DNA of 64,000 nucleotides from a phage. The DNA lies in NCBI GenBank assembly GCA_016658885.1, contig GCA_016658885.1_4807.1; one strand, written 5' to 3'. Position numbers and translations under genes: made by a program. The stretch's first letter is position 1, and each line of letters starts with the position of its first letter. Below, one piece after another: positions 22,068 through 37,562 of this stretch. A model generated the notes under the pieces. The model saw nothing but the letters and a program-made list of their open reading frames with translations, did no database searches and was not told the DNA's origin.

Positions 22068-22135
22068 TGAAGGCATAATTAAGTTATCCCAAACGGGGAA
22101 TATAAAATAAACTAATTTATTTAAGGACTGTGAAC

Positions 22136-22975
22136 ATGGCCGAAGCAATCAAAGTATTATCTAAAGAAGAAAAACAAGCAGCTGCAGCAGAACGTCGTCG
22201 CGTGGCTGAAGAAAAACGTCTGGCTAAAAAGAAAGAAGCCGAAGAAAAACGCCAGAAGCGTGAGCAGGAAAAACAAGCCAAGCGTGAAGAAGCTGCGCTG
22301 AAACGCAAGCAGGCTGCTGATGAGAAGGCTCAGAAGCGTGCTGAAGAAGCAGCTAAGAAAGCTAAAGAGCGTGCAGAAAAGGCTGCTGCTAAGAAAGCAG
22401 AGCGTGAAGCTGCTAAAGCAGCGAAAGAAATCGAAAAGGCAAAGGCTAAAGAAGAAGCCAAGCGCCTGAAAGCTGAACAAGCTGCTGCTAAGAAAGCAGA
22501 GCGTGATCAAGCACGTGCTGCAGCGAAGGCCGAAAAAGAGAAGGCCAAAGAAGAAGCTAAAGCGAAACGCAAGGCAGAGCGTGAAGCTGCTAAGATTGCG
22601 GCTAAAGAAGCTGCAGAACAGCAGAAAGAACAGCGTAAGAAAGAAGCTGAAGAACGTCGCAAAGCCATCGCAGAACGTAAGGCTGCTAAAAAGGCAAACG
22701 GTCAGCGTCGTGCAAAAGCAACCCACTTCATCTACACTGGCAATGGCCTGAGCCAGCCGCAAGAGCATTCCACCCGTGGACGCGTTCTGGCTGCGATCAA
22801 AGAAGGCGAAGTTGGCGTGGCGCAGTCTATCGATGAGCTGGGCGAAAAAGTTAAAGATCAACTGTTTGGCGCTTCCGTTCGCTCCTACCTGAGCAAGCTG
22901 GAAGAGATGGGCCACATCGAGTTTGTCGATGTTGAATCCAACGAAGATGCCGAAGACAGTGATCAAGCGGAATAA
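22136..22975 (+). CDS. Lys/Glu/Ala-rich low-complexity protein with globular C-terminal domain (possible DNA-binding protein)
   Basis: About 190 residues of AEEKR/KAEREAAK-type repeats, then a non-repetitive C-terminus; ATG at 22136 after AAGGAC. Confidence 0.6.
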   Translation: MAEAIKVLSKEEKQAAAAERRRVAEEKRLAKKKEAEEKRQKREQEKQAKREEAALKRKQAADEKAQKRAEEAAKKAKERAEKAAAKKAEREAAKAAKEIEKAKAKEEAKRLKAEQAAAKKAERDQARAAAKAEKEKAKEEAKAKRKAEREAAKIAAKEAAEQQKEQRKKEAEERRKAIAERKAAKKANGQRRAKATHFIYTGNGLSQPQEHSTRGRVLAAIKEGEVGVAQSIDELGEKVKDQLFGASVRSYLSKLEEMGHIEFVDVESNEDAEDSDQAE

Positions 22976-23107: not shown

Positions 23108-24103
23108 ATGAACATGAAACAACCTGTAATGATTATCGGCGGCGGATTGGCAGGACTTATCACAGCGTGTCACTTCCCGAACTCTATTGTGTACGAAGCA
23201 GGGGAGCGAGCGCAACAGCACAAGGCGCTGCTACGCTTTCGCGGCGAAGAAGTAAGCCGTATTACCGGAATCCCTTTTAAGGCCGTGACAGTTGACAAGG
23301 CTGTGTATTTTCGCGGCAACTACTACCACGACCATTGCCCAATCAACCTTGCCAATATGTATTCCATGAAGGTCACCAATCAATTTGGCAGCCGTTCAAT
23401 CATGAAGCTTAAGACTGCAACGCGTTATATTGCGCCTGACGACTTTTATGATCAGCTTGTCGACAAACTGGGTGACCGCATATTCTTTAATACTCCGGTC
23501 GATACTCTTTGCGGCTATAGCGAGACGCCAATCATCAACACGTCGCCGCTGCCAGTCATGATGAAGCTGGCTGGTATTGATCAGAATCTTGACTTTTCAT
23601 TCGATAAAGCAAACATTCGCGTTTACCGCTTTAAGATTAAACGTAAGTGTGAACTTTATCAAACCATTTACTTTCCTGACTACTCCGTCAGAACTTACCG
23701 CGCTTCAATCACTGGCGACACATTGATCATTGAAACAATTCCTTTGGTTAGCGTAAGTGAAGCCGCAGTTGAAGCCGCTGGCGGCATTACTCGTTACCGT
23801 GACATTAAGTTGCGTGCAGAAGTTGACGAAGTGTTGACGGCCTTTGGTCTATCATGGAGTGACATCGCTCTCGAAGAAGTTGAGAAGGTCGACCAGAAGT
23901 ATGGCAAGATTGTCGACATTCCGAAAGACTTGCGACACGCTCTACTCCTACAACTTACCATGGATTTGAACGTGTTTAGTGTCGGTCGCTTTGCTACCTG
24001 GCGAAACATTTTGCTTGATGACGTTGCTCATGACCTTGTTGAAGTTGAAAAACTCATCAAAGCAAATAACTATCAAAAATTTGCTTATATTGCTAATAAA
24101 TAA
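23108..24103 (+). CDS. FAD/NAD(P)-binding Rossmann-fold oxidoreductase (possibly UDP-galactopyranose-mutase-like)
   Basis: N-terminal VMIIGGGLAGLITA dinucleotide-binding motif; C-terminal FSVGRFATWRNILLDDV resembles the UGM C-terminal GRLAEYKY segment (from memory). Confidence 0.5.
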   Translation: MNMKQPVMIIGGGLAGLITACHFPNSIVYEAGERAQQHKALLRFRGEEVSRITGIPFKAVTVDKAVYFRGNYYHDHCPINLANMYSMKVTNQFGSRSIMKLKTATRYIAPDDFYDQLVDKLGDRIFFNTPVDTLCGYSETPIINTSPLPVMMKLAGIDQNLDFSFDKANIRVYRFKIKRKCELYQTIYFPDYSVRTYRASITGDTLIIETIPLVSVSEAAVEAAGGITRYRDIKLRAEVDEVLTAFGLSWSDIALEEVEKVDQKYGKIVDIPKDLRHALLLQLTMDLNVFSVGRFATWRNILLDDVAHDLVEVEKLIKANNYQKFAYIANK

Positions 24104-24169: not shown

Positions 24170-24616
24170 ATGAAACGCATCACTGGAATCGCTCTTGCCG
24201 CAACTGCTATTCTCGGCACCATGTATATGGAAGCGACTGAAGCCGCTGTCCGTACTTCCGATTCAATCGCCGTGTATGATTGCGAAGCGATGGACGGTAA
24301 AACCGCAGCAACCACTGGCGCAACTATCACGGCTTACATCGGCGTGAACGAGCAAGAAGGTCTGAATATTCAGATTCAAGGATTCACAGGGAAAGGTGCC
24401 AACCGTACTCCGTGGATGCAGCGTTTCACTTTCGTTCAGCCTCGTTCAACTGGCGGCTTTATCAACTTGATTGGTGAAAACCGTTCTGGTGCAGAAATCT
24501 TTACATCAATGAGTTCTAATAATGAACCAAAGAAAAGTTTTCAGTTGCTTTATAACGCACAATTCGTTTATCATTGCACCTTCTCTGGTGATCAGCAACT
24601 AGTGAATTACCGTTAA
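24170..24616 (+). CDS. secreted/periplasmic protein (148 aa)
   Basis: N-terminal signal-peptide-like MKRITGIALAATAILGTMYMEATEAA. Confidence 0.5.
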   Translation: MKRITGIALAATAILGTMYMEATEAAVRTSDSIAVYDCEAMDGKTAATTGATITAYIGVNEQEGLNIQIQGFTGKGANRTPWMQRFTFVQPRSTGGFINLIGENRSGAEIFTSMSSNNEPKKSFQLLYNAQFVYHCTFSGDQQLVNYR

Positions 24617-24629
24617 TAGGATAATTAAA

Positions 24630-25433
24630 ATGAAAGTTGAATTAATTCGATACACCCAAGATGCACTTGACCTTTTGCTGGAAACAAAGAACACGCGCAT
24701 GACTGGTAAGCCCGTCTCTGAGATGACAGAATCAGAGAAGCAAGAGCACTGGCGCTATATGCTTGACACCATCAAGTCACCTTTTGACTTTGTGGACTAT
24801 ATCTTTGATATCACTGATGTATCAAAGAACATGACCCATCAGATGGTACGCACACGCACAGGCGCATATCAAGAACGCACCAGCCGCGCGCAGGAGTCAT
24901 CTGCTTTTGATGCGATTCGTCCGAAAGCGTTTGAGTATGACGACCCTGACAGGGTTATCGGCGAGCGAATCGACGAGCAGCGTTTGAAGTTGGCTAACAC
25001 ATGGGACGACGCCATGGCGACCATTGACGCCCTATACCAAGAACTTCGCGCGGCTGGCGCAGAGATTCAAGATGCACGTGCCGTTTTGCCTTCTAATATG
25101 CAAACTCATATCATGGCAAAGTTCAACTTGCGCACGCTGCAACAGATGGCGTCAAACCGCTTGTGCACGCGCACACAAGGCGAGTATCAAGAAGTATTTC
25201 GCGCAATGGTTGCGGAAGTCCTCAAGGTGCACCCGTGGGCTAATCCTTTACTACAGCCGCAATGCATCGGTATGGGTAAATGCGCGTTTCCTCGTCACGG
25301 CAAAGCCCATTGCCCTTGGTATCGTGATTGGATGGATACTACGGCACAGCAAGAAGAGTTGCGCATCCAGTTTTGGAATGCGATGCCAATCACCAACAAT
25401 CCAGTTGCTAAAGATGGAGTATCAAAAGGATGA
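24630..25433 (+). CDS. ThyX-family (flavin-dependent thymidylate synthase-like) protein with variant active-site motif
   Basis: MKVELIRYT start; VRTRTGAYQERTSR aligns with ThyX RHRxxSYxExSxRY; ARAVLPSNMQT...NLRTLQQMASNR...EYQ parallels the ThyX C-terminal block. Confidence 0.65.
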   Translation: MKVELIRYTQDALDLLLETKNTRMTGKPVSEMTESEKQEHWRYMLDTIKSPFDFVDYIFDITDVSKNMTHQMVRTRTGAYQERTSRAQESSAFDAIRPKAFEYDDPDRVIGERIDEQRLKLANTWDDAMATIDALYQELRAAGAEIQDARAVLPSNMQTHIMAKFNLRTLQQMASNRLCTRTQGEYQEVFRAMVAEVLKVHPWANPLLQPQCIGMGKCAFPRHGKAHCPWYRDWMDTTAQQEELRIQFWNAMPITNNPVAKDGVSKG

Positions 25434-26302
25434 GCATTAAAAACAGCGAAATCTTAAACGTATTCGACCTTGACGGAACGCTGTTTGATGATCGTTGGCG
25501 CTTAGACCGCATTAAGGTGGCAGGTCCGTTGTCAGACTATGATGATTATCACAGCGGTATTGGTTATGATCAGTTCTATCCTCACATTGCATCAGCAGTA
25601 GAGTCGGCATCTCTTCGCGGTGAGGCGGTTGAATATTGGACTGCAAGGCCAGAAAAATACAGACAAGTGACTTTTGAACGTCTGGACAATGTTTTTCCTT
25701 TTGATGAATTTACAATCAAGATGAGAGACTATGGCGACAAACGTACATCAACTATTATGAAATCTGCATGGCTATCGCACGCTTTGCGGCACGGCGATTA
25801 TCGAATCATCAATGTATTCGACGACCGACAAGACGTACTCGCGCGGATGCAAGATGAAGCATTGTATTATAATTCCGTTGCTCAAAATAAAATCGCTTTT
25901 ACATTTAATCTTTGCAAGGCAGGTGAAGTGGTGCAACAATTAGCAATTGATCCAAGCGCAACAGGGCAAGAAGAGACTAAGGCTGTGGAAGTTGAACAAT
26001 CTCCGGCAACTGCCGCCGATATTCTTGATGCAATGGCAGCAACCTTCCGTGAGCGCAACGCTGTCTATGGCGATAACGCTGTGATGGTAGGTCAGGTTAT
26101 GCAAGTGCTTTTCCCTAATGGCGTGACGTTGAAAACGCCGGAAGACTACCACATGTGGCATCTGTTCGAGCTTAAGATTGTCAAGCTTACACGCTTCGCA
26201 ATCAGCGGCCTGAAGCACGAAGACTCTATACACGATGATGGTGTTTACAGCGCCATGTGTGAACGTCTTGTTAACACCCATAATATTAATTTCAATAAAT
26301 AG
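25430..26302 (+). CDS. HAD-superfamily phosphatase fused to an uncharacterised C-terminal domain
   Basis: Motif I VFDLDGTLFDD, later VFDDRQD; C-terminal 110 aa (AADILDAMAATFRERNAVYGDN...) unassigned. Confidence 0.55.
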   Translation: MSIKNSEILNVFDLDGTLFDDRWRLDRIKVAGPLSDYDDYHSGIGYDQFYPHIASAVESASLRGEAVEYWTARPEKYRQVTFERLDNVFPFDEFTIKMRDYGDKRTSTIMKSAWLSHALRHGDYRIINVFDDRQDVLARMQDEALYYNSVAQNKIAFTFNLCKAGEVVQQLAIDPSATGQEETKAVEVEQSPATAADILDAMAATFRERNAVYGDNAVMVGQVMQVLFPNGVTLKTPEDYHMWHLFELKIVKLTRFAISGLKHEDSIHDDGVYSAMCERLVNTHNINFNK

Positions 26303-26348
26303 TTTACTTGTGCGTTTCGATGAGTTATATTTATCTCATCGAAACGAA
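26303..26348 (+). promoter_or_regulatory. sigma70-like promoter with conserved downstream motif
   Basis: TTTACT, 17-bp spacer, TATATT, then TCATCGAAACGAA; same architecture at 33602..33648. Confidence 0.5.
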
Positions 26349-26367: not shown

Positions 26368-27051
26368 ATGAAAAAAGTAATTGTTGTAACTGGCTGCAAT
26401 TCCGGTCTTGGTAAATCCATTTTTGACACCCTTGGCGCTTACGGTCATGAAGTTGTCGGTATTGATTTGGAGAACGGCTATGACATCCGTAACGCGAAAC
26501 AGATGAAAGAGCTTCTCTCTCAATACGACGTAGAAGGCTTGATCAACTGCGCTGGCGTCAACTCCAACAACTGGTTCGAAGATGTTAACTACGAAGAGTT
26601 CAATCGCGTTATGCACACCAACGCCTTCTCTTTCGTCAACACGACTCAGGCCGCGCTGAAAAGTCTTATTGACAACAAAGGTTTTGTGATCAACATCGTT
26701 TCCAACGCTGCGCATATTCCTATGACGTCCAGCTTGTGTTATAATGCTTCCAAGGCTGCTGCGCTCATGATTAGCAAGCAGATGGCTCACGAGCTTACGC
26801 CTAAATACGGGATCACGGTATTCTCTATTAGTCCTAACAAGCTACGTGGTACTGGCATGTCCAAACAGATTGAAGATGCTGTTTGCGCGACTCGCGGCTG
26901 GACTCCTGAATACGCTGCTGAATACCAGAAAAAGGCACTGATGAATGGATTGGAGACTGAGCCGCAAGTAATTGCTGACTTCATTCGCCATATCTTAATT
27001 ACGGGCGCATGGCGCTTTATGTCTGGTACTGATATTCCATTCGGTAAATAA
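26368..27051 (+). CDS. short-chain dehydrogenase/reductase (SDR)
   Basis: VVTGCNSGLGKS cofactor motif, NCAG, catalytic YNASK. Confidence 0.75.
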   Translation: MKKVIVVTGCNSGLGKSIFDTLGAYGHEVVGIDLENGYDIRNAKQMKELLSQYDVEGLINCAGVNSNNWFEDVNYEEFNRVMHTNAFSFVNTTQAALKSLIDNKGFVINIVSNAAHIPMTSSLCYNASKAAALMISKQMAHELTPKYGITVFSISPNKLRGTGMSKQIEDAVCATRGWTPEYAAEYQKKALMNGLETEPQVIADFIRHILITGAWRFMSGTDIPFGK

Positions 27052-27147: not shown

Positions 27148-27699
27148 ATGCCACATTTTAAAATTGAACAAATCGCCCTGTCAATTCCAGGTGCTCAGCG
27201 CGCACAGAATTTCCTGGCTAAAATCGGCCTGACAGAATGGTTCCATGATCACGTTGTTGCTACTGGTCGCGTATTTGAAGCTGATGTCTTTAAGGGTCAG
27301 CGCGGCGATTGCACCAACGAAGCTGACTTGCGCTTCAACTATCAGGCTGGCAACGGCACCGATGGCGGCGCTGGTAAGCCTCTTGAGCTTGAAATTCTTG
27401 ACTATACAAAAGGTTGCAACTGGATTCACGAAAACATCGAATACATCGATGCGCACGACAATCAGGTTAGCCATCTTGGTATGCACGTGACTGCCGCTGA
27501 ACTTGCTGAATGGCGCAAGTTCTTTAAAGAAGAAGGCATTCAGGTTGCGCAGGAAGTTGTGACCGACTCTCACACCAACCCAAACATTGCTGGTCAGCGT
27601 CGTTACAACTATGTAATCTTTGATACTCGTGAAATCATCGGTGTCGACCTTAAATTCATCGTACGGTTGAATCAAGACGGTACTCCGTACACTGTATAA
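27148..27699 (+). CDS. hypothetical protein, possibly glyoxalase/VOC-like fold
   Basis: ORF track; weak beta-alpha-beta pattern only; tentative. Confidence 0.35.
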   Translation: MPHFKIEQIALSIPGAQRAQNFLAKIGLTEWFHDHVVATGRVFEADVFKGQRGDCTNEADLRFNYQAGNGTDGGAGKPLELEILDYTKGCNWIHENIEYIDAHDNQVSHLGMHVTAAELAEWRKFFKEEGIQVAQEVVTDSHTNPNIAGQRRYNYVIFDTREIIGVDLKFIVRLNQDGTPYTV

Positions 27700-27715: not shown

Positions 27716-27741
27716 GGCCGTCCTAATGGGCGGCCTTTTTG
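27716..27741 (+). terminator. rho-independent terminator
   Basis: GGCCGTCC-taat-GGGCGGCC followed by TTTTT. Confidence 0.65.
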
Positions 27742-27753
27742 TAGGAGGCCAAT

Positions 27754-28296
27754 GTGTTATTTCTCCCTTATGACTTCGAAACAACCGGATTAACCGTGCA
27801 CCCGAAAGCGCCGCTTGGGATGCAGCCGCGCCCTATTGAATTTGCAGGTCTGTTGACAGACGGCAAAGAGATTCTTGAAACTTTTGAGTTCATAATTAAT
27901 CCTGAAATTGTGATTGAAGAAATCATCACAAAGATTACCGGATTAACAAATGAAGACCTTGAGTGCAATCCACCATTCATCAATTTCGTTCCGCAGCTAA
28001 AAGAAATATTCAAGAAGACGGATGCAACTATCGCGCACAACCATGCATTTGATAAAAACATTCTTGATTATGCACTACAGCGCGAAGGACTTACACTTGA
28101 TGATGTTAATTTCCCAGAAATAAACATCTGTACAGTTGAGCAAACCTTGCCTATTTTTGGTCGAAGAGTTAAGCTTCAAGAGCTGTATGAATTATATTTC
28201 GGAAAATATGAACAGAAGCACCGTGCATTAGACGACGTAATATTACTGCACAAAGTCTGCCAACAAATTGGCGTATATGACATCTGGAGTAAATAA
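27754..28296 (+). CDS. DnaQ-like 3'-5' exonuclease (DEDDh)
   Basis: YDFETTG, HNHAFDKNIL, HRALDDVILL; GTG start after AGGAGG. Confidence 0.75.
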   Translation: MLFLPYDFETTGLTVHPKAPLGMQPRPIEFAGLLTDGKEILETFEFIINPEIVIEEIITKITGLTNEDLECNPPFINFVPQLKEIFKKTDATIAHNHAFDKNILDYALQREGLTLDDVNFPEINICTVEQTLPIFGRRVKLQELYELYFGKYEQKHRALDDVILLHKVCQQIGVYDIWSK

Positions 28297-28757
28297 TGCT
28301 TGACATAGACTATTTGCACGAGCATTTCGATTATTTTGATGGCCAGCTTATAGTCAAAAAGAAGCCCTATAAATATAGAACTCAGGTTGGTGAACCAATA
28401 GGCTATCTTCATGGAGATAGATTGAGATGTAATCTTCACGGAAGGAAATGGTTTGTTCACCAGTTGATATTCTTCTATCATCATGGCTATTTGCCAGCTT
28501 ATGGAATCGACCATTGGGATAGGAATCCACTAAATAACAGAATCGAAAACTTAAGACCTTGTGACGCATCATCAAATGCTCAGAATATCGAAAGGTCTGA
28601 TGAAGTAGGAATAATCTTGACAATCAGCGGCACTTGGGAAGCGTCCATATCAATTAAAGGCAAAAAGAAGTACCTTGGAACTTTCAAGGAAAAGCACGAA
28701 GCCATTGAAGCGAGAATACGTGCAGAAAAAGACCACTACACCCACTACTGGAGGTAA
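28296..28757 (+). CDS. HNH homing endonuclease with AP2-type DNA-binding domain
   Basis: H..DRNPLNNRIENLR...NAQN HNH core; C-terminal SISIKGKKKYLGTFKEKHEAIEAR. Confidence 0.7.
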   Translation: MLDIDYLHEHFDYFDGQLIVKKKPYKYRTQVGEPIGYLHGDRLRCNLHGRKWFVHQLIFFYHHGYLPAYGIDHWDRNPLNNRIENLRPCDASSNAQNIERSDEVGIILTISGTWEASISIKGKKKYLGTFKEKHEAIEARIRAEKDHYTHYWR

Positions 28758-28758
28758 C

Positions 28759-31659
28759 ATGTCATTTCCACAACTAAGAGTTAGAAGCGGATATTCATTT
28801 AAAGAAGTTTACGGAAGGATGCCTGAAATTTGCTCGCGTCTAATTCAACTTAATTGTCACGCGGCAGCGATAGTTGATAACAATACTTGGTGTCACGTTC
28901 GCTGGGAAAAGGAATGCCAGAAAAATGATATTAAGCCTATGTTTGGAATGGAGATTCCAATCATCGACCCTGATGCGGACCCGAAAAAGGGATTCAAACC
29001 GAAGGCTTGGATATTGGCCCTTGACCTGAAATCCTTTTACAATGCGACCACGCTTGCAACACAGCGCGGCGGATTGACCCGTGCAGAGTTCGGGGCGCTC
29101 GATGGCGTCGTTAAATTCTGTGGCGGGGCCGTGGAGTTGCTGCGGCCAGAGGACTACGATTATATAGACGTCAACCCATCATCGTTCCTTTTGGCCAAGC
29201 GCCAGGTATTGGCTCACCGCAGCAACGGAAGGCCGCTGGTTTTAACCGGATACAATCACATGCCTTCACCTGAGCACGTTGACTTTGCTTATGCGTGGGA
29301 AGTTCGCGACACGGTTAAGCCGCACTGCATCGTTGACGCGGAAGACTTGCGCAAACAGCTTAAAGGAATCTTAACCGAAGATGAGTTGAATCAAGCAACT
29401 GCCAATGCGGTTGACATTGCAAATGGAATCGTTGGGCTTGACCTGAAGCTGCGCAAGGCGCCGATTATCCACCTTGCTGGTGACATGGTAAAACTTGCTC
29501 GTGAGGGTATGGAGTACCGCCTTAAGGCAGGTCACATCAAAGAATGGACTCAGGAATATGAGGACCGATTCAACGAAGAGATTCATCAGATTCAGCTAAA
29601 AGATTTCGACTCATACTTTCTTGTTGTAGCGGACCTTGTACGATTTGCAAAAACAAAAATGCTCGTCGGACCTGCTCGCGGCTCATCGGCTGGTTCACTG
29701 GTTTGTTATTGCCTCGGCATCACGGAAGTTGACCCAATCCCGTATAAGCTGCTATTTGCCCGATTCATCGACGTAAGCCGCGCCGACCTCCCTGATATTG
29801 ATATTGACTTTGAGGACACCAAACGCTATATGGTGTTTGATTACCTTAAAGAAAAATACGGCGAAATGAACGTTGCAAAGCTTGGCAACATCAACACGCT
29901 TAAGGCCAACTCAGTAATGGCTCAGGTTGGTAAGAAGTTCAACATTGGATATCACGAAACGGCCAACATTAAAAACGCATTGCTTGAATACTCATCTGGT
30001 GACGCCCGTTATGGTCACGGTCTGGAGGATACCTTTGCAACAACGACCACGGGCCAAGAGTTTGTGGCTAAATATCCCGATGCCGCGCGTTGCATGGGTG
30101 ACCTTGAGATTCACCCGTCCCACACAGGTGTTCACGCAGCGGGAATTATTGTGTGTAATGACCCAATCTCTGATTACTGTACGGTAACAGCGGAAGGGAT
30201 TGCACAAATTGATAAGCCTGACAGCGAATACCTTAACCTTTTGAAGCTTGATGCGCTGGGCCTTCGTACCCTCGGCATCATTTCTGATACTGGCGTGATA
30301 GATGCTGAAACGCTGTACGGCATAAAGCTTGATGATCAAAGCGTCCTTGACATCCTTAACGAAAACAAGATGTCAGGCATCTTCCAGTTTGAAGGCGATG
30401 CTGTACGCTCAGTGACCAACTTTGTGCACGTTGATAACTTTAACAAAATCGATAACCTGACAGCACTTGGTCGACCTGGCCCGTTGTCATCCGGTATGGC
30501 CCAGAAATACATTGAACGCGCGGCAGGGCGTGCGCCGATTGAATACGACGTGCCGCAGCTTGAGCCGTACTTAAAAGAGACTTACGGCGTGTTTCTTTAC
30601 CAAGAGCAAATCATGGCCGTGGTTAAAGAGATTGGTTCATTCGACTGGGCGAAAACATCCGCTGTACGCAAAGCGATGTCAGGCCGTAAGGGTGAAGAAT
30701 ACTTTAACAAGCTTGGCGAGGACTTTGTTGCAGGCGCAATCAATAACGGCGTACCGGAAGCGGACGCAAGAAAACTTTGGCAAGCGATGGCAACGTTCGG
30801 GTCATGGGGCTTTAACAAGTCACACTCCGTGTCATACGCGGTCGTGACCTACTGGACCTTGTGGCTTAAGCGACACTACCCGTTGGAATTTGCCGCAGCC
30901 TGCTTACGCGCTGCTAAGGACGAAGACCAGACGATTGCGATACTACGTGAACTTGCGAAGGAAGGCGTGGATTATGTGCCAATCGACCCTGATCACTCTT
31001 CAATGAACTGGACCATCGCGAACGGAAAGCTAATCGGCGGCATCATGAACGCGAAAGGATACGGAATGGTGAAGGCAATGAAGTATATCGAAGCGCGTGA
31101 AGCCGGAACCTTAACGCAAAAGCAAAAGGACGCATTGGCCAATGCTGAAGTCAAATACGGCGACCTTACAGAGATGCACACAAAGTTCGGCTGGGCGTAT
31201 AATGACCCGTATCTGATTGGCGTGACTTCCGGCGCTTCAATACGCCAGATGAAGGAAGTCGGTGATGACGAGCGTGCAATAGTAATCGGCAAGTTGACAA
31301 AGAAAGTGCTTGCAGACGAGAACGAAGCGACACGCATCCGTAAACGACTTGAGCGCGGCATCTATACAAAGCACGGCAAGCTTAAAAAAGGTCTTCAAGC
31401 TGATGGCCGCTACGCCGAGTTTGACCAGTACGGGAACAAGCTTGAGACTCAGTTCATCGACCTTATGTGCAAAGACGACTCGACAGACTCGCCAATGCGC
31501 TTCAGGATTCGTCCAGAAAAGTTCCAGAAGTACGGGAAATACATTGCTGAAAACGTCGGTAACGGCGCATTCTTCCTGATGAAAGGTCGTAAGCTTGAAG
31601 GCATTGACATGTTCATCGTCGACGTTATCAAACAGGTGTATCCAGATGGCAACAAATAA
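28759..31659 (+). CDS. dnaE: DNA polymerase III alpha-subunit-like replicative polymerase (DnaE family, PHP domain)
   Basis: GPARGSSAGSLVCYCLGITEVDP...LPDIDIDFE catalytic block; start set at ATG 28759 after GGAGG. Confidence 0.8.
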   Translation: MSFPQLRVRSGYSFKEVYGRMPEICSRLIQLNCHAAAIVDNNTWCHVRWEKECQKNDIKPMFGMEIPIIDPDADPKKGFKPKAWILALDLKSFYNATTLATQRGGLTRAEFGALDGVVKFCGGAVELLRPEDYDYIDVNPSSFLLAKRQVLAHRSNGRPLVLTGYNHMPSPEHVDFAYAWEVRDTVKPHCIVDAEDLRKQLKGILTEDELNQATANAVDIANGIVGLDLKLRKAPIIHLAGDMVKLAREGMEYRLKAGHIKEWTQEYEDRFNEEIHQIQLKDFDSYFLVVADLVRFAKTKMLVGPARGSSAGSLVCYCLGITEVDPIPYKLLFARFIDVSRADLPDIDIDFEDTKRYMVFDYLKEKYGEMNVAKLGNINTLKANSVMAQVGKKFNIGYHETANIKNALLEYSSGDARYGHGLEDTFATTTTGQEFVAKYPDAARCMGDLEIHPSHTGVHAAGIIVCNDPISDYCTVTAEGIAQIDKPDSEYLNLLKLDALGLRTLGIISDTGVIDAETLYGIKLDDQSVLDILNENKMSGIFQFEGDAVRSVTNFVHVDNFNKIDNLTALGRPGPLSSGMAQKYIERAAGRAPIEYDVPQLEPYLKETYGVFLYQEQIMAVVKEIGSFDWAKTSAVRKAMSGRKGEEYFNKLGEDFVAGAINNGVPEADARKLWQAMATFGSWGFNKSHSVSYAVVTYWTLWLKRHYPLEFAAACLRAAKDEDQTIAILRELAKEGVDYVPIDPDHSSMNWTIANGKLIGGIMNAKGYGMVKAMKYIEAREAGTLTQKQKDALANAEVKYGDLTEMHTKFGWAYNDPYLIGVTSGASIRQMKEVGDDERAIVIGKLTKKVLADENEATRIRKRLERGIYTKHGKLKKGLQADGRYAEFDQYGNKLETQFIDLMCKDDSTDSPMRFRIRPEKFQKYGKYIAENVGNGAFFLMKGRKLEGIDMFIVDVIKQVYPDGNK

Positions 31660-35973: not shown

Positions 35974-36597
35974 ATGAACCAGATTTATGCAAACATTCGC
36001 CAGTGGGCTTCTGACCGTAACATCATCCAAGGTTGCGACCTTAAGGACCAATACCCGAAGCTTATCAGCGAGTTTGGGGAGTTAACCGATCACGTTGATC
36101 AACTCCATGACCTTGTGTTCTTCGACCCTGAAATTGGATATACAGAGCAGGCCATCTGTGACTTGCAAGCTGCAATCAAGGACGACATTGGCGATTGTCT
36201 TGTTGTGTTGACCATCCTGGCGGCGCAAAACGGTACTGAAATCGAAAACATTAATGGCGGCGGTTGTGCTGATAAAGGCGCTCACCCTCATTCATTCATC
36301 CTTCGCCTGGCAAAGACTCTCGGACGGCTTGGTGATGCTATTGCTAAGAATCAGACCATGGATATTGACGTCACCATCATGGCCGCAGTCGATTACCTTT
36401 CCGGCGTAGCTCATGATTATGGCCTTCGCTTATCCGACTGTGCGCAAGCGGCCTACGAAGACATCAAGGACCGCAAAGGTGTCATGTACAACGGAACGTT
36501 CATCAAATCTACTGATCCAGCTTATGAGCACTCCTGCAAAATGGTAAAGAAGCTGGAACTTGAAGACCGTGTGATCAGAGAAGTTACAGGACAATAA
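35974..36597 (+). CDS. MazG-like nucleoside triphosphate pyrophosphohydrolase
   Basis: EFGELTDHV and DDIGDCLVVLTILAAQNG helical motifs. Confidence 0.5.
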   Translation: MNQIYANIRQWASDRNIIQGCDLKDQYPKLISEFGELTDHVDQLHDLVFFDPEIGYTEQAICDLQAAIKDDIGDCLVVLTILAAQNGTEIENINGGGCADKGAHPHSFILRLAKTLGRLGDAIAKNQTMDIDVTIMAAVDYLSGVAHDYGLRLSDCAQAAYEDIKDRKGVMYNGTFIKSTDPAYEHSCKMVKKLELEDRVIREVTGQ

Positions 36598-36599
36598 TT

Positions 36600-37562
36600 A
36601 TGACAGCATTAAAACCAATGAAGGGTTGCCAACGTAAGCAGATTATCGAGCGCGGCGAGGACGTGCCGCTGCCTTGCGGACTGTCATTCAAGGTTGATGG
36701 CATACGTGCAATGGCGTATGACAACTTGCCAATGGGCACTTCCGGCATGCCGTTGCGCAACGTTCAAATCAAAAAAGAGTTCCTCTTTTTGGGTGAACTA
36801 ATTCACGGACTTGATGGAGAGCTAATCGACGGCAATCCAAATGATAAGAACGTCATGCAACAGGCCTATACTGCATGCATGAATACTGATGCAATCACTA
36901 ACTTTACATGGTGGGTGTTTGATGACTTCAGCGACCCTGATTTGCCTTTTGAAAAGCGTTATGCAAACTATCGCGCTAGAGTTGCTGAAGTCAATCAGCA
37001 CCTCATCAACCATGGTCGACGCCCATTCCTTCGCGCTCTCGAATATCGAAACATCGAAAATATGGAACAGTACGCGGCGATGCAAATCGAAGCAGACCAA
37101 CTTGGCTATGAAGGCTTGTATGGCAAGTCTTGGACGGGCAAATACAAGCATGGCCGCGCGACGCCAAAGTCACGTGATGTGTGGAAGGACAAGCCGTGGA
37201 CCGATGAAGAAGGACTGATCATAGACTTCGTTGAGATGATGGAGAACAACAACGAAGCATTCATTGATGAGTTGGGTCGCACTAAGCGTTCGAAAGAGGC
37301 TGAAGGCTTAGTTGCAAAAGGATACCTTGGATCATTTGTGGTTGTCAATCCAAAATATGTTGATGAGAAAGGTGAAATGATTCCTTTCCGCGTCTCCGCT
37401 GGTTCAATGCCTATGGCAGAGAGAAAAATGCTTTGGGAGAATCGCGAGAATTATCGCAACAAGTATCTGACATATAAATTCTTCAACTTTGGCATCGTTG
37501 ACGTGCCGCGCTCTGCCTTGTATAAATGCTTCCGTGATATTACCGATATGGAGTATTTTTAA
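36600..37562 (+). CDS. ATP-dependent DNA ligase
   Basis: Adenylation motif SFKVDGIRA (KxDGxR) about 40 aa from N-terminus. Confidence 0.65.
   Translation: MTALKPMKGCQRKQIIERGEDVPLPCGLSFKVDGIRAMAYDNLPMGTSGMPLRNVQIKKEFLFLGELIHGLDGELIDGNPNDKNVMQQAYTACMNTDAITNFTWWVFDDFSDPDLPFEKRYANYRARVAEVNQHLINHGRRPFLRALEYRNIENMEQYAAMQIEADQLGYEGLYGKSWTGKYKHGRATPKSRDVWKDKPWTDEEGLIIDFVEMMENNNEAFIDELGRTKRSKEAEGLVAKGYLGSFVVVNPKYVDEKGEMIPFRVSAGSMPMAERKMLWENRENYRNKYLTYKFFNFGIVDVPRSALYKCFRDITDMEYF

Follow-up and report, generated by a model that had tools for sequence, protein, structure and literature searches.

A predicted T4 Pnk-type phosphatase joined to a divergent DUF6378-like helical domain in a ThyX-linked gene set of Wifcevirus-like coliphages

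The 64,000-nucleotide stretch of DNA analysed here (contig GCA_016658885.1_4807.1, called the window throughout) comes from a Wifcevirus-like Escherichia coli myovirus, and the gene under study is a complete open reading frame (ORF) at 25430–26302 that joins a predicted HAD phosphatase domain to a four-helix domain resembling DUF6378. It belongs to a series consisting, in order, of a 331-aa (amino acid) protein with a Rossmann motif, a 148-aa ORF, a ThyX-like enzyme, the fusion itself, a short-chain dehydrogenase/reductase (SDR), a VOC-like protein, a terminator-like hairpin, a DnaQ-like exonuclease, an HNH insertion and the DNA polymerase III alpha subunit (PolIIIalpha). The features of the fusion gene, identified from the ORF list, the sequence, Pfam, profiles of the protein's homologues and AlphaFold2 models, are the following.

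25430..26302, plus strand: complete ORF encoding HAD phosphatase, linker and DUF6378-like four-helix domain; ATG start, 290 aa plus stop (ORF list, sequence)
25430..25433, plus strand: ATGA overlap of the thyX stop and the fusion-gene start (ORF coordinates 24630–25433 and 25430–26302)
25430..25954, plus strand: predicted cap-less HAD phosphatase domain of the T4 Pnk phosphatase type, aa 1–175 (Pfam, family profile, AlphaFold2)
25466..25480, plus strand: HAD motif I, D13-L-D15-G-T17, with predicted nucleophile Asp13 and general acid/base Asp15 (sequence; D13 and D15 invariant)
25640..25648, plus strand: HAD motif II, T71-A-R73 (T71 invariant, R73 at least 90% conserved; "iTaR" aligned to "vSGR" of 5uj0)
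25760..25762, plus strand: HAD motif III lysine, K111 (invariant; aligned to the lysine of T4 Pnk "VVKEE")
25820..25834, plus strand: HAD motif IV, D131-D132-R-Q-D135 (D131 and D132 invariant, R133 and D135 at least 90% conserved; aligned to T4 Pnk DDRTQ)
25955..26008, plus strand: flexible interdomain linker, about aa 176–193 (the AlphaFold2 predicted local distance difference test, pLDDT, falls to 50–75)
26009..26299, plus strand: C-terminal four-helix domain, aa 194–290, a probable divergent relative of DUF6378 (AlphaFold2, profile matches of homologues)

The ORF is a real coding gene and not a chance reading frame. Its region is 92–97% identical at the nucleotide level in 29 phage genomes, including AV128, ECML-117, WFH, FEC19 and Bas98/Bas101, and for the whole gene the ratio of non-synonymous to synonymous substitution rates (dN/dS) relative to phage Bas101 is 0.13, as is expected of a translated gene under selection. 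The full two-domain architecture is found in more than 100 protein clusters at 30–96% identity, and PHROG 4889 matches across both halves of the 290-aa protein (1.9e-120). The ATGA overlap indicates probable translational coupling of the fusion gene to thyX. The gene is already catalogued, in PHROG 4889 and in UniProt and GenBank entries, yet it is misleadingly named and uncharacterised. Judged by its sequence, the label "polynucleotide kinase/phosphorylase", attached to PHROG 4889 and to many GenBank records, is an over-annotation; it overstates the protein because no kinase domain is present. Inspection of the 290 aa found no Walker A motif (GxxxxGK[ST]), and scans of the fusion protein against Pfam, NCBIfam and PHROG returned no kinase family apart from the name inherited from the PHROG. 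The protein is best described as a Pnk-type phosphatase partnered by a DUF6378-like domain in place of the kinase.

The N-terminal domain appears from profiles and motifs to be a cap-less (C0) HAD phosphatase, as is the T4 enzyme. The Pfam family HAD_PNKP (PF25109; gathering threshold 27.6 bits) is passed by the full protein with 33.0 bits and by aa 1–170 alone with 34.8, the match covering aa 11–142 and profile positions 5–130 of 143. A profile built from 93 full-length homologues found, in the PDB, T4 Pnk (5uj0, 1.3e-7; 1ltq, 1.5e-6) and Capnocytophaga Pnkp1 (4xrp, 4.3e-7), with motifs II–IV aligned to the phosphatase domain of T4 Pnk and DDReDV of the family paired with DDRTQV. All four catalytic motifs of the HAD superfamily are present in the sequence, and D13, D15, R24, T71, R99, K111, D131 and D132 are invariant in the 93 homologues; the predicted catalytic apparatus is therefore intact, the roles of the motif residues being those of established HAD enzymology. 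The interval of 11 residues between Asp13 and Arg24 matches that between D165 and R176 in T4 Pnk. In the AlphaFold2 model, aa 8–173 form a beta/alpha core with pLDDT above 90 and alternating strands and helices (strands at aa 8–12, 66–74, 95–99, 126–131 and others); because the domain has only about 170 residues, it leaves no room for a cap.

C-terminal to this core, the full-length AlphaFold2 model (pLDDT 90; predicted template-modelling score, pTM, 0.65) places a low-confidence linker at about aa 174–194 and four helices at aa 195–213, 216–227, 237–258 and 264–280, and four helices are also obtained, with pLDDT 91.6, when the C-terminal domain is modelled alone. The models thus suggest an independently folding four-helix domain of about 97 aa, which by a hand count from the sequence is net acidic (about 12 Asp/Glu to 9 Lys/Arg). 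The linkers of fused homologues measure between about 20 and more than 200 aa; acidic or low-complexity ones are frequent, and some fused forms carry Cys-rich inserts resembling zinc ribbons. A similar CxxC...CxxC segment lies just N-terminal of the helical domain in many free-standing or long-linker homologues (P0023, P0034, P0059, P0074, P0114, P0120 and P0137), and one Cys-rich homologue of the domain weakly matches DnaJ_CXXCXGXG. In the fusion of Pseudomonas phage F8 the acidic linker contains an expanded EDAA repeat.

An earlier note on this DNA, written from the sequence alone, had proposed the same division of the protein. It read the N-terminal part as a HAD phosphatase on the strength of two motifs, both of which are there (F12-DLDGTL, with D13, D15 and T17, and F130-DDRQD, with D131, D132 and D135), and the HAD_PNKP match and the T4 Pnk domain found by profile at 1e-7 bear this out. 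Its separate C-terminal helical module is likewise seen in the AlphaFold2 models, the boundary prediction it had proposed giving a HAD core at aa 8–173, a linker and helices from aa 195; its quoted peptide, AADILDAMAATFRERNAVYGDN...WHLFELKIVKLTRFA, lies at aa 195–257, but the size of 110 aa was an overestimate. That the phosphatase is of the T4 Pnk (PNKP) type, and that the fusion is widespread and catalogued as PHROG 4889 under a kinase name, are points beyond what was noted then.

The earlier note had also declared the C-terminal domain unassignable. This holds for the window domain itself, which matched nothing in Pfam, NCBIfam or PADLOC scans and gave no match to DUF6378 (PF19905; gathering threshold 27.1 bits) at E up to 10, but its homologues, for the most part free-standing phage proteins of 95–120 aa that are 60–75% identical to it, allow the family to be placed. 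Free-standing homologues of 95–96 aa score 24.3–25.8 bits against DUF6378 (E 1.4e-5 to 3.9e-5), below the threshold; 105 of the 119 family members match it (E up to 1, best 4.8e-6) over nearly the whole length of the model, and no other family is consistently matched by the 119. On these profile matches the helical domain appears to be a divergent, sub-threshold branch of DUF6378, and we file it as a relative rather than a member. An exhaustive profile search gathered 2088 representatives of the family clustered at 50% identity. Free-standing homologues match PHROGs 474, 1167, 1485 and 6328; these either have no known function or bear the dubious name "phosphofructokinase".

Structure comparison, made on predicted structures, may point in the same direction. 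Foldseek against BFVD returned the same fusion in other phages first and then DUF6378 proteins (E 9e-3 to 0.1, probability 0.96–1.0, template-modelling score 0.5–0.64, predicted structures only) together with a single protein annotated Nmad1, a weak match (E 0.023, template-modelling score 0.52). Solved structures offered no counterpart: in sequence searches of the PDB the helical domain matched nothing, either with the single protein or with the 119-sequence profile as query, and the best Foldseek hit there had an E-value of 1.0. None of the 119 members matches the Pfam profile of Nmad1 (PF07659) at E up to 1. Membership in the MazG-like pyrophosphohydrolases, the hypothesis with which the analysis started, was rejected, as neither profile nor fold searches support it and the EExxE/ExxD metal motifs are absent. 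No paper characterising DUF6378 or the HAD/helical fusion was found in the literature.

The association of the two domains was surveyed in 80 viral loci from IMG/VR, scanned with hidden Markov models made from the two halves of the protein, and 78 of these loci were informative. The helical domain is fused to the HAD domain in 24 of them and encoded separately, with a HAD ORF upstream, in the remaining 54 (gap 3–240 nt; 2.3 kb in one locus); no locus lacks a HAD gene despite having upstream sequence, and in two the upstream sequence is ended by the end of the contig. Around free-standing homologues the pattern is the same, a 95-aa helical gene lying downstream of a separate HAD_PNKP gene of 154–203 aa, often as the next gene with a 4-nt overlap and sometimes with one to three small genes between. 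The pattern suggests that the fusion is the covalent form of a two-gene pair (a Rosetta-stone relation) and that the helical domain is an obligate partner of the HAD phosphatase. Phages outside the Pbunavirus-like clade have as partner another HAD that is not PNKP-like: in the Rhizobium phage it is a generic one, and in a Microbacterium phage (gp56) it weakly resembles NT5C (16.7 bits, sub-threshold against a cut-off of 24.8). The link is thus with phosphatases in general. One metagenomic relative has the HAD and helical-domain genes separated by an inserted Acb2/Tad1-hairpin gene (L013, 4750–4974), which resembles anti-CBASS/anti-Thoeris sponges.

Among the proteins of the module, the helical domain is in most relatives the one with the highest conservation, Pbunavirus excepted. 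In five distant metagenomic loci it is 58–75% identical, compared with 38–47% for PolIIIalpha and 40–45% for ThyX, the SDR, VOC and HAD proteins of the same loci showing 46–49%, 46–53% and 25–32%, respectively; across the 80 IMG/VR loci its identity is 59–79%, against 35–66% for PolIIIalpha. It is under extreme purifying selection, with 13 synonymous and no non-synonymous differences from Bas101, where the HAD domain has 14.5 of each. Residues R209, Y213, G221, M224, F228, P229, G231, K252, R255, D265, S266, D269 and Y273 are invariant in four phage lineages, and N216 and T254 nearly so. A candidate His/Asp/Glu metal site (H244, E247, H263, H268) was considered and rejected; it looks invariant among close relatives, but Pbunavirus has lost it and the Rhizobium and Microbacterium versions do not conserve it fully, and residues that are not conserved across lineages cannot define the function of the superfamily.

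The gene set was compared in the same lineages. In the metagenomic relatives (80 loci) the set and its order are the same wherever the contig reaches. Pbunavirus 14-1 and F8 have the Rossmann protein, ThyX and the fusion and lack SDR and VOC; the 206-kb Rhizobium phages (Kleczkowskaviridae) have the Rossmann protein, ThyX and a 240-aa HAD/helical fusion adjoining dUTPase and ribonucleotide reductase (RNR) genes; and Microbacterium phage Sparcetus (Krampusvirus) has, upstream of DnaE, the Rossmann protein, the weakly NT5C-like HAD, SDR and VOC, followed by the helical domain in a 216-aa protein, with a ThyX-like gene 7 kb from the set. The set therefore recurs, in varying order and only sometimes with SDR and VOC, in four lineages (Wifcevirus-like/metagenomic, Pbunavirus, Rhizobium and Microbacterium), and the changes of order and of HAD subtype speak for a functional module rather than frozen synteny. 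SDR and VOC as universal partners were rejected on their absence from the Pbunavirus and Rhizobium phages. Between Pbunavirus 14-1 (L018, 7940–8956) and F8 (L019, 7772–8836) the fusion is 79% identical and its neighbours 94–98%.

The features that surround the fusion gene in the window are listed below.

23108..24103, plus strand: 331-aa protein with N-terminal GxGxxG Rossmann motif (PHROG 4828, function unknown)
24630..25433, plus strand: ThyX-like flavin-dependent thymidylate synthase, upstream partner (Pfam Thy1, 104.9 bits; PDB ThyX matches)
26313..26346, plus strand: strong RNA hairpin in the 65-nt gap between the fusion and SDR genes (–22.1 kcal/mol, z-score –6.8 against shuffled sequence; no T-run after it)
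26368..27051, plus strand: SDR (adh_short, 110 bits), 65 nt after the fusion gene
27148..27699, plus strand: 183-aa glyoxalase/VOC-like protein (weak or faint Glyoxalase_4 matches of homologues; some GenBank entries "glyoxalase family")
27716..27735, plus strand: terminator-like hairpin after the VOC gene, GGCCGTCC..GGGCGGCC followed by TTTTT (consensus scan, pattern match only)

The Rossmann protein tracks the helical domain closely, tblastn locating it in 362 phage records against 364 for the helical domain with nearly the same distribution over genera, including the 206-kb Rhizobium phages. No Pfam domain was found in the window copy or in 120 listed homologues, and searching the PDB with its profile gave no more than a dinucleotide-binding match at the N-terminus, to FAD amine oxidases and not significant (E 0.16). 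A few GenBank records name it UDP-galactopyranose mutase or polyamine oxidase, for which support could not be reproduced. The ThyX-like protein scores 81.4 bits against the TIGR02170 equivalog, below its cut-off of 87.9, and aligned to Thermotoga maritima ThyX it has R-T-R in place of RHR and T-S-R-A in the S-x-R-Y segment; by its sequence, it may not be an ordinary thymidylate synthase. Wherever one of the 80 viral loci reaches far enough, an SDR gene follows the helical domain immediately. In split-gene relatives the helical and SDR genes overlap, at the place where the window has the gap with the hairpin. The VOC-like protein of the window has no Pfam match of its own; its homologues occur in 55 phage records, including Microbacterium phages, only together with the DUF6378-like domain and SDR, and none of the 55 comes from a Pseudomonas or Rhizobium phage. 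The hairpin at 27716–27735 probably ends the transcription unit of the module.

Further from the fusion gene, an HNH_3 homing-endonuclease gene (28296–28757) lies exactly between the DnaQ-like exonuclease and PolIIIalpha genes and is an insertion, because in Bas101 the exonuclease gene directly abuts the polymerase gene; PolIIIalpha itself probably begins with the ATG at 28759. A 281-aa protein (22130–22975) encoded just upstream of the module, with Lys/Ala/Glu-rich, KAKEEAK-like repeats followed by a short globular C-terminus and without a Pfam match, keeps its position in Bas101 and Pbunavirus. The 148-aa ORF between the Rossmann gene and thyX (24170–24616) has a hydrophobic, signal-peptide-like N-terminus and is specific to Wifcevirus; it matches no PHROG or Pfam family, and the five distant syntenic loci hold no detectable homologue. 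The window also encodes a separate MazG-like protein (35974–36597; PHROG 1992) and an ATP-dependent DNA ligase (36600–37562), which has weak ligase matches in Pfam and is annotated in Bas101. Over the whole window, HindIII sites (AAGCTT) number 58 against about 18 expected from base composition, are dispersed and have no extended flanking motif, and XbaI (2) and EcoRV (6) sites are under-represented; codon and dipeptide bias could contribute to these site counts.

Taken together, the domain identities, motifs, linkage, gene set and selection lead us to read the fusion, tentatively and with a little less than even confidence, as a phosphatase and its obligate partner in a ThyX-linked nucleotide-tailoring pathway. 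The HAD domain would act as a phosphomonoesterase by the standard HAD mechanism, in which Asp13 would attack the substrate phosphate to give an aspartyl-phosphate, Asp15 would serve as general acid/base, Thr71 and Lys111 would hold the phosphate and Asp131 and Asp132 would bind Mg2+. Cap-less HADs lack a specificity element of their own; together with the invariant Arg/Lys/Asp/Ser/Tyr set of the helical domain, this leads us to infer for the four-helix partner a role in binding or pre-processing the substrate, which would be a phosphorylated compound of nucleotide type, free or DNA-borne; the HAD domain would then remove a phosphate from it. Likely substrate contacts would be Arg209, Lys252, Arg255, Asp265, Ser266, Asp269, Tyr213 and Tyr273. 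The reaction would be one step of a pathway that includes the ThyX-like enzyme and the 331-aa Rossmann protein, and in this phage SDR and VOC as well, and that may supply or modify pyrimidine nucleotides for the phage DNA. The earlier note had suggested a nucleotide-processing role from the position of the gene between ThyX-like and SDR genes; the position is confirmed by the Thy1 and adh_short matches, and the role plausibly fits the context, given the coupling to thyX and the ThyX, dUTPase and RNR neighbours in the unrelated Rhizobium phage.

Several observations weigh against this reading of the fusion. The adjacency of the genes partly reflects shared ancestry, as a single large clade of syntenic phages supplies most of the loci; independent support for the linkage comes from the Rhizobium and Microbacterium lineages and from the alternation of fused and split forms. 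In Pbunavirus the helical domain is only 43–47% identical, although the polymerase is 61% identical, and it lacks His244, Glu247, His263 and His268; the function of the domain may not be uniform across the family. The pTM of 0.65 means that the HAD and helical domains are not confidently packed against each other, and the model does not support a cap-like closure of the helical domain over the HAD site. Finally, a polynucleotide 3'-phosphatase would be just as compatible with the PNKP-type fold.

This last point leads to an alternative in nucleic-acid end-healing, in which the PNKP-type HAD would strip 3'-phosphates from broken DNA or RNA for a ligase or polymerase, countering host nucleases, and the four-helix domain would be an oligomerisation or targeting module that replaced the kinase. 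The closest characterised relatives of the phosphatase are indeed the phosphatase domains of T4 Pnk and Pnkp1, cap-less HADs are suited to macromolecular substrates, a flexible tether is typical of recruitment domains, and the gene sits beside replication genes in a phage that encodes an ATP-dependent DNA ligase. That ligase, however, lies about 10 kb away, the protein has neither a kinase domain nor a Walker A motif, and the translational coupling to thyX and the dUTPase and RNR surroundings in the Rhizobium phage speak against it. The partner HAD is not PNKP-like in the Microbacterium and Rhizobium phages, a net acidic domain would be unusual for a nucleic-acid binder, and an oligomerisation module would hardly be the most conserved protein of the region with an invariant set of polar Arg, Lys, Asp, Ser and Tyr residues. 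We regard end-healing as unlikely.

Sequential degradation of a nucleotide, in which the helical domain as a MazG-like pyrophosphohydrolase would convert a (d)NTP to the (d)NMP and the HAD domain would convert this to the nucleoside, depleting an unwanted canonical or signalling nucleotide, has its model in the classical dTTPase and dTMPase activities of phages with uracil or hydroxymethyluracil in their DNA. Four helices in about 95 aa with conserved acidic and basic residues, a fused phosphatase that would carry out the next hydrolytic step, the nucleotide-metabolism context and the weak NT5C resemblance of the Microbacterium HAD to 5'(3')-deoxynucleotidases are all in keeping with it; but none of the 119 family members matches the Pfam families MazG, PRA-PH or dUTPase_2, the metal motifs of MazG are missing from the helical domain, the phage already has its separate MazG-like protein, and the Rhizobium phage has a dUTPase as well as the fusion; together these points make this reading quite improbable. 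There is, finally, the alternative that the earlier note itself had named, namely that the C-terminal region is a HAD cap or specificity domain of known type and the protein an ordinary small-molecule phosphatase. C1 caps, too, are small helical bundles, and cap-less cores need a specificity element. The region nevertheless starts some 60 residues after motif IV, whereas a cap is inserted in the core, between motifs I and II (C1) or II and III (C2); a disordered linker, which differs in length among homologues, sets it apart from the core, and 54 of 78 loci encode it as a gene of its own. It matches DUF6378 and no HAD model, and its conservation far exceeds that of the HAD core, the reverse of what is usual for caps. 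We consider it highly improbable that it is such a cap.

Within the nucleotide-tailoring reading, a more specific role can be considered. In the DNA of the Pbunaviruses F8 and 14-1, about one quarter of the T positions, in TG context, carry a hypermodified thymidine; the modified nucleosides have masses of 362 and 390, the adduct is tetritol-like or a pentose, and no biosynthetic gene has been assigned to these adducts (Yee et al., PMC12191111). By our own arithmetic, which is not that of the paper, the masses would fit O-linked adducts of 5-hydroxymethyldeoxyuridine (258 + 150 for a pentose – 18 = 390; 258 + 122 for tetritol – 18 = 362). It is possible, though we think it rather less probable than the general reading, that the pair of HAD and DUF6378-like domains, the Rossmann protein and the divergent ThyX are the missing thymidine-hypermodification machinery of the Pbunavirus/Wifcevirus lineage, to which SDR and VOC could also belong in Wifcevirus-type phages. 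The cap-less phosphatase would then trim phosphate from a nucleotide- or DNA-borne sugar-phosphate adduct, and the helical domain would act either as a specificity subunit or as a nucleotide-modification enzyme of a new kind.

Two observations hint in favour of such machinery. Besides ThyX, the fusion and the Rossmann protein, the only other enzymes in the 14-1 annotation consulted are a MazG-like pyrophosphatase, a DNA ligase and replication proteins, with no glycosyltransferase and no kinase listed; and the fusion is among the genes that diverge most between F8 and 14-1, two phages with different adducts, its identity being 79% where the neighbouring genes reach about 96%. A hint to the contrary is that the Pbunaviruses lack SDR and VOC and have a much more divergent helical domain. 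The window has 10 EcoRI, 6 EcoRV and 4 EcoKI sites. The hypermodification proposal yields a short list of genes bearing on the thymidine adducts of Pbunavirus and on restriction resistance in Wifcevirus. As to annotation, hundreds of phage genomes, including those of Pbunaviruses used in therapy, name this gene "polynucleotide kinase", a name that should go, since there is no kinase domain. The pairing of phosphatase and helical domain, and its recurrence with ThyX and the Rossmann protein, provide an experimental entry to both DUF6378 and PHROG 4828.

Among known systems, the phosphatase domains of T4 Pnk and Pnkp1 (1LTQ, 5UJ0, 4XRP) are of the same cap-less HAD fold class as the window protein and share with it DxDGT, (S/T)-x-R, the motif III lysine and DDR-x-x-V. 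In contrast to T4 Pnk, the window protein lacks the P-loop 5'-kinase domain, carries the phosphatase at the N-terminus rather than the C-terminus and joins it instead to a DUF6378-like helical domain, and its genomic partners are ThyX, the Rossmann protein, SDR and VOC rather than an RNA ligase. The 5'(3')-deoxyribonucleotidases of the NT5C/mdN type, HAD phosphatases acting on pyrimidine deoxynucleotides, may be functional analogues, in view of the ThyX, dUTPase and RNR context; they carry a cap, which the window HAD does not, and the Pfam scan of the window protein gave no match to NT5C (PF06941). In the known phage pathways of thymidine hypermodification, which involve the 5-hmdU kinase 5-HMUDK, aGPT-Pplase and other enzymes, the genes form clusters adjoining replication genes and combine an enzyme of the thymidylate-synthase family with tailoring enzymes, as is the case here (Lee et al. 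2018, PMC5889632). The module described here has no homologue of the ThyA-type dUMP hydroxymethylase, of 5-HMUDK or of aGPT-Pplase, and has in their place ThyX, the Rossmann protein, the HAD phosphatase and the DUF6378-like domain.

A further parallel is offered by Nmad1/DUF1599 ("nucleotide modification associated domain 1"), which is, like the helical domain, a small all-helical viral domain and which in Asgard archaeal viruses forms part of a dUTPase–ThyX–Nmad1 block (Nmad1 being PF07659/DUF1599; bioRxiv 10.1101/2021.07.29.453957), paralleling the ThyX linkage seen here. There is also DUF6378 itself, an uncharacterised domain of about 80 aa from phages and bacteria. The motif pattern R..YG..N, K-x-T/S-R, DS..D...Y is common to both, and both are found adjoining ThyX, DUF6378 following it in a Faecalibacterium phage (PMC13432834). 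The branch to which the window domain would belong differs from DUF6378 in its much stronger conservation and in being, as it appears, obligately tied to a HAD phosphatase.

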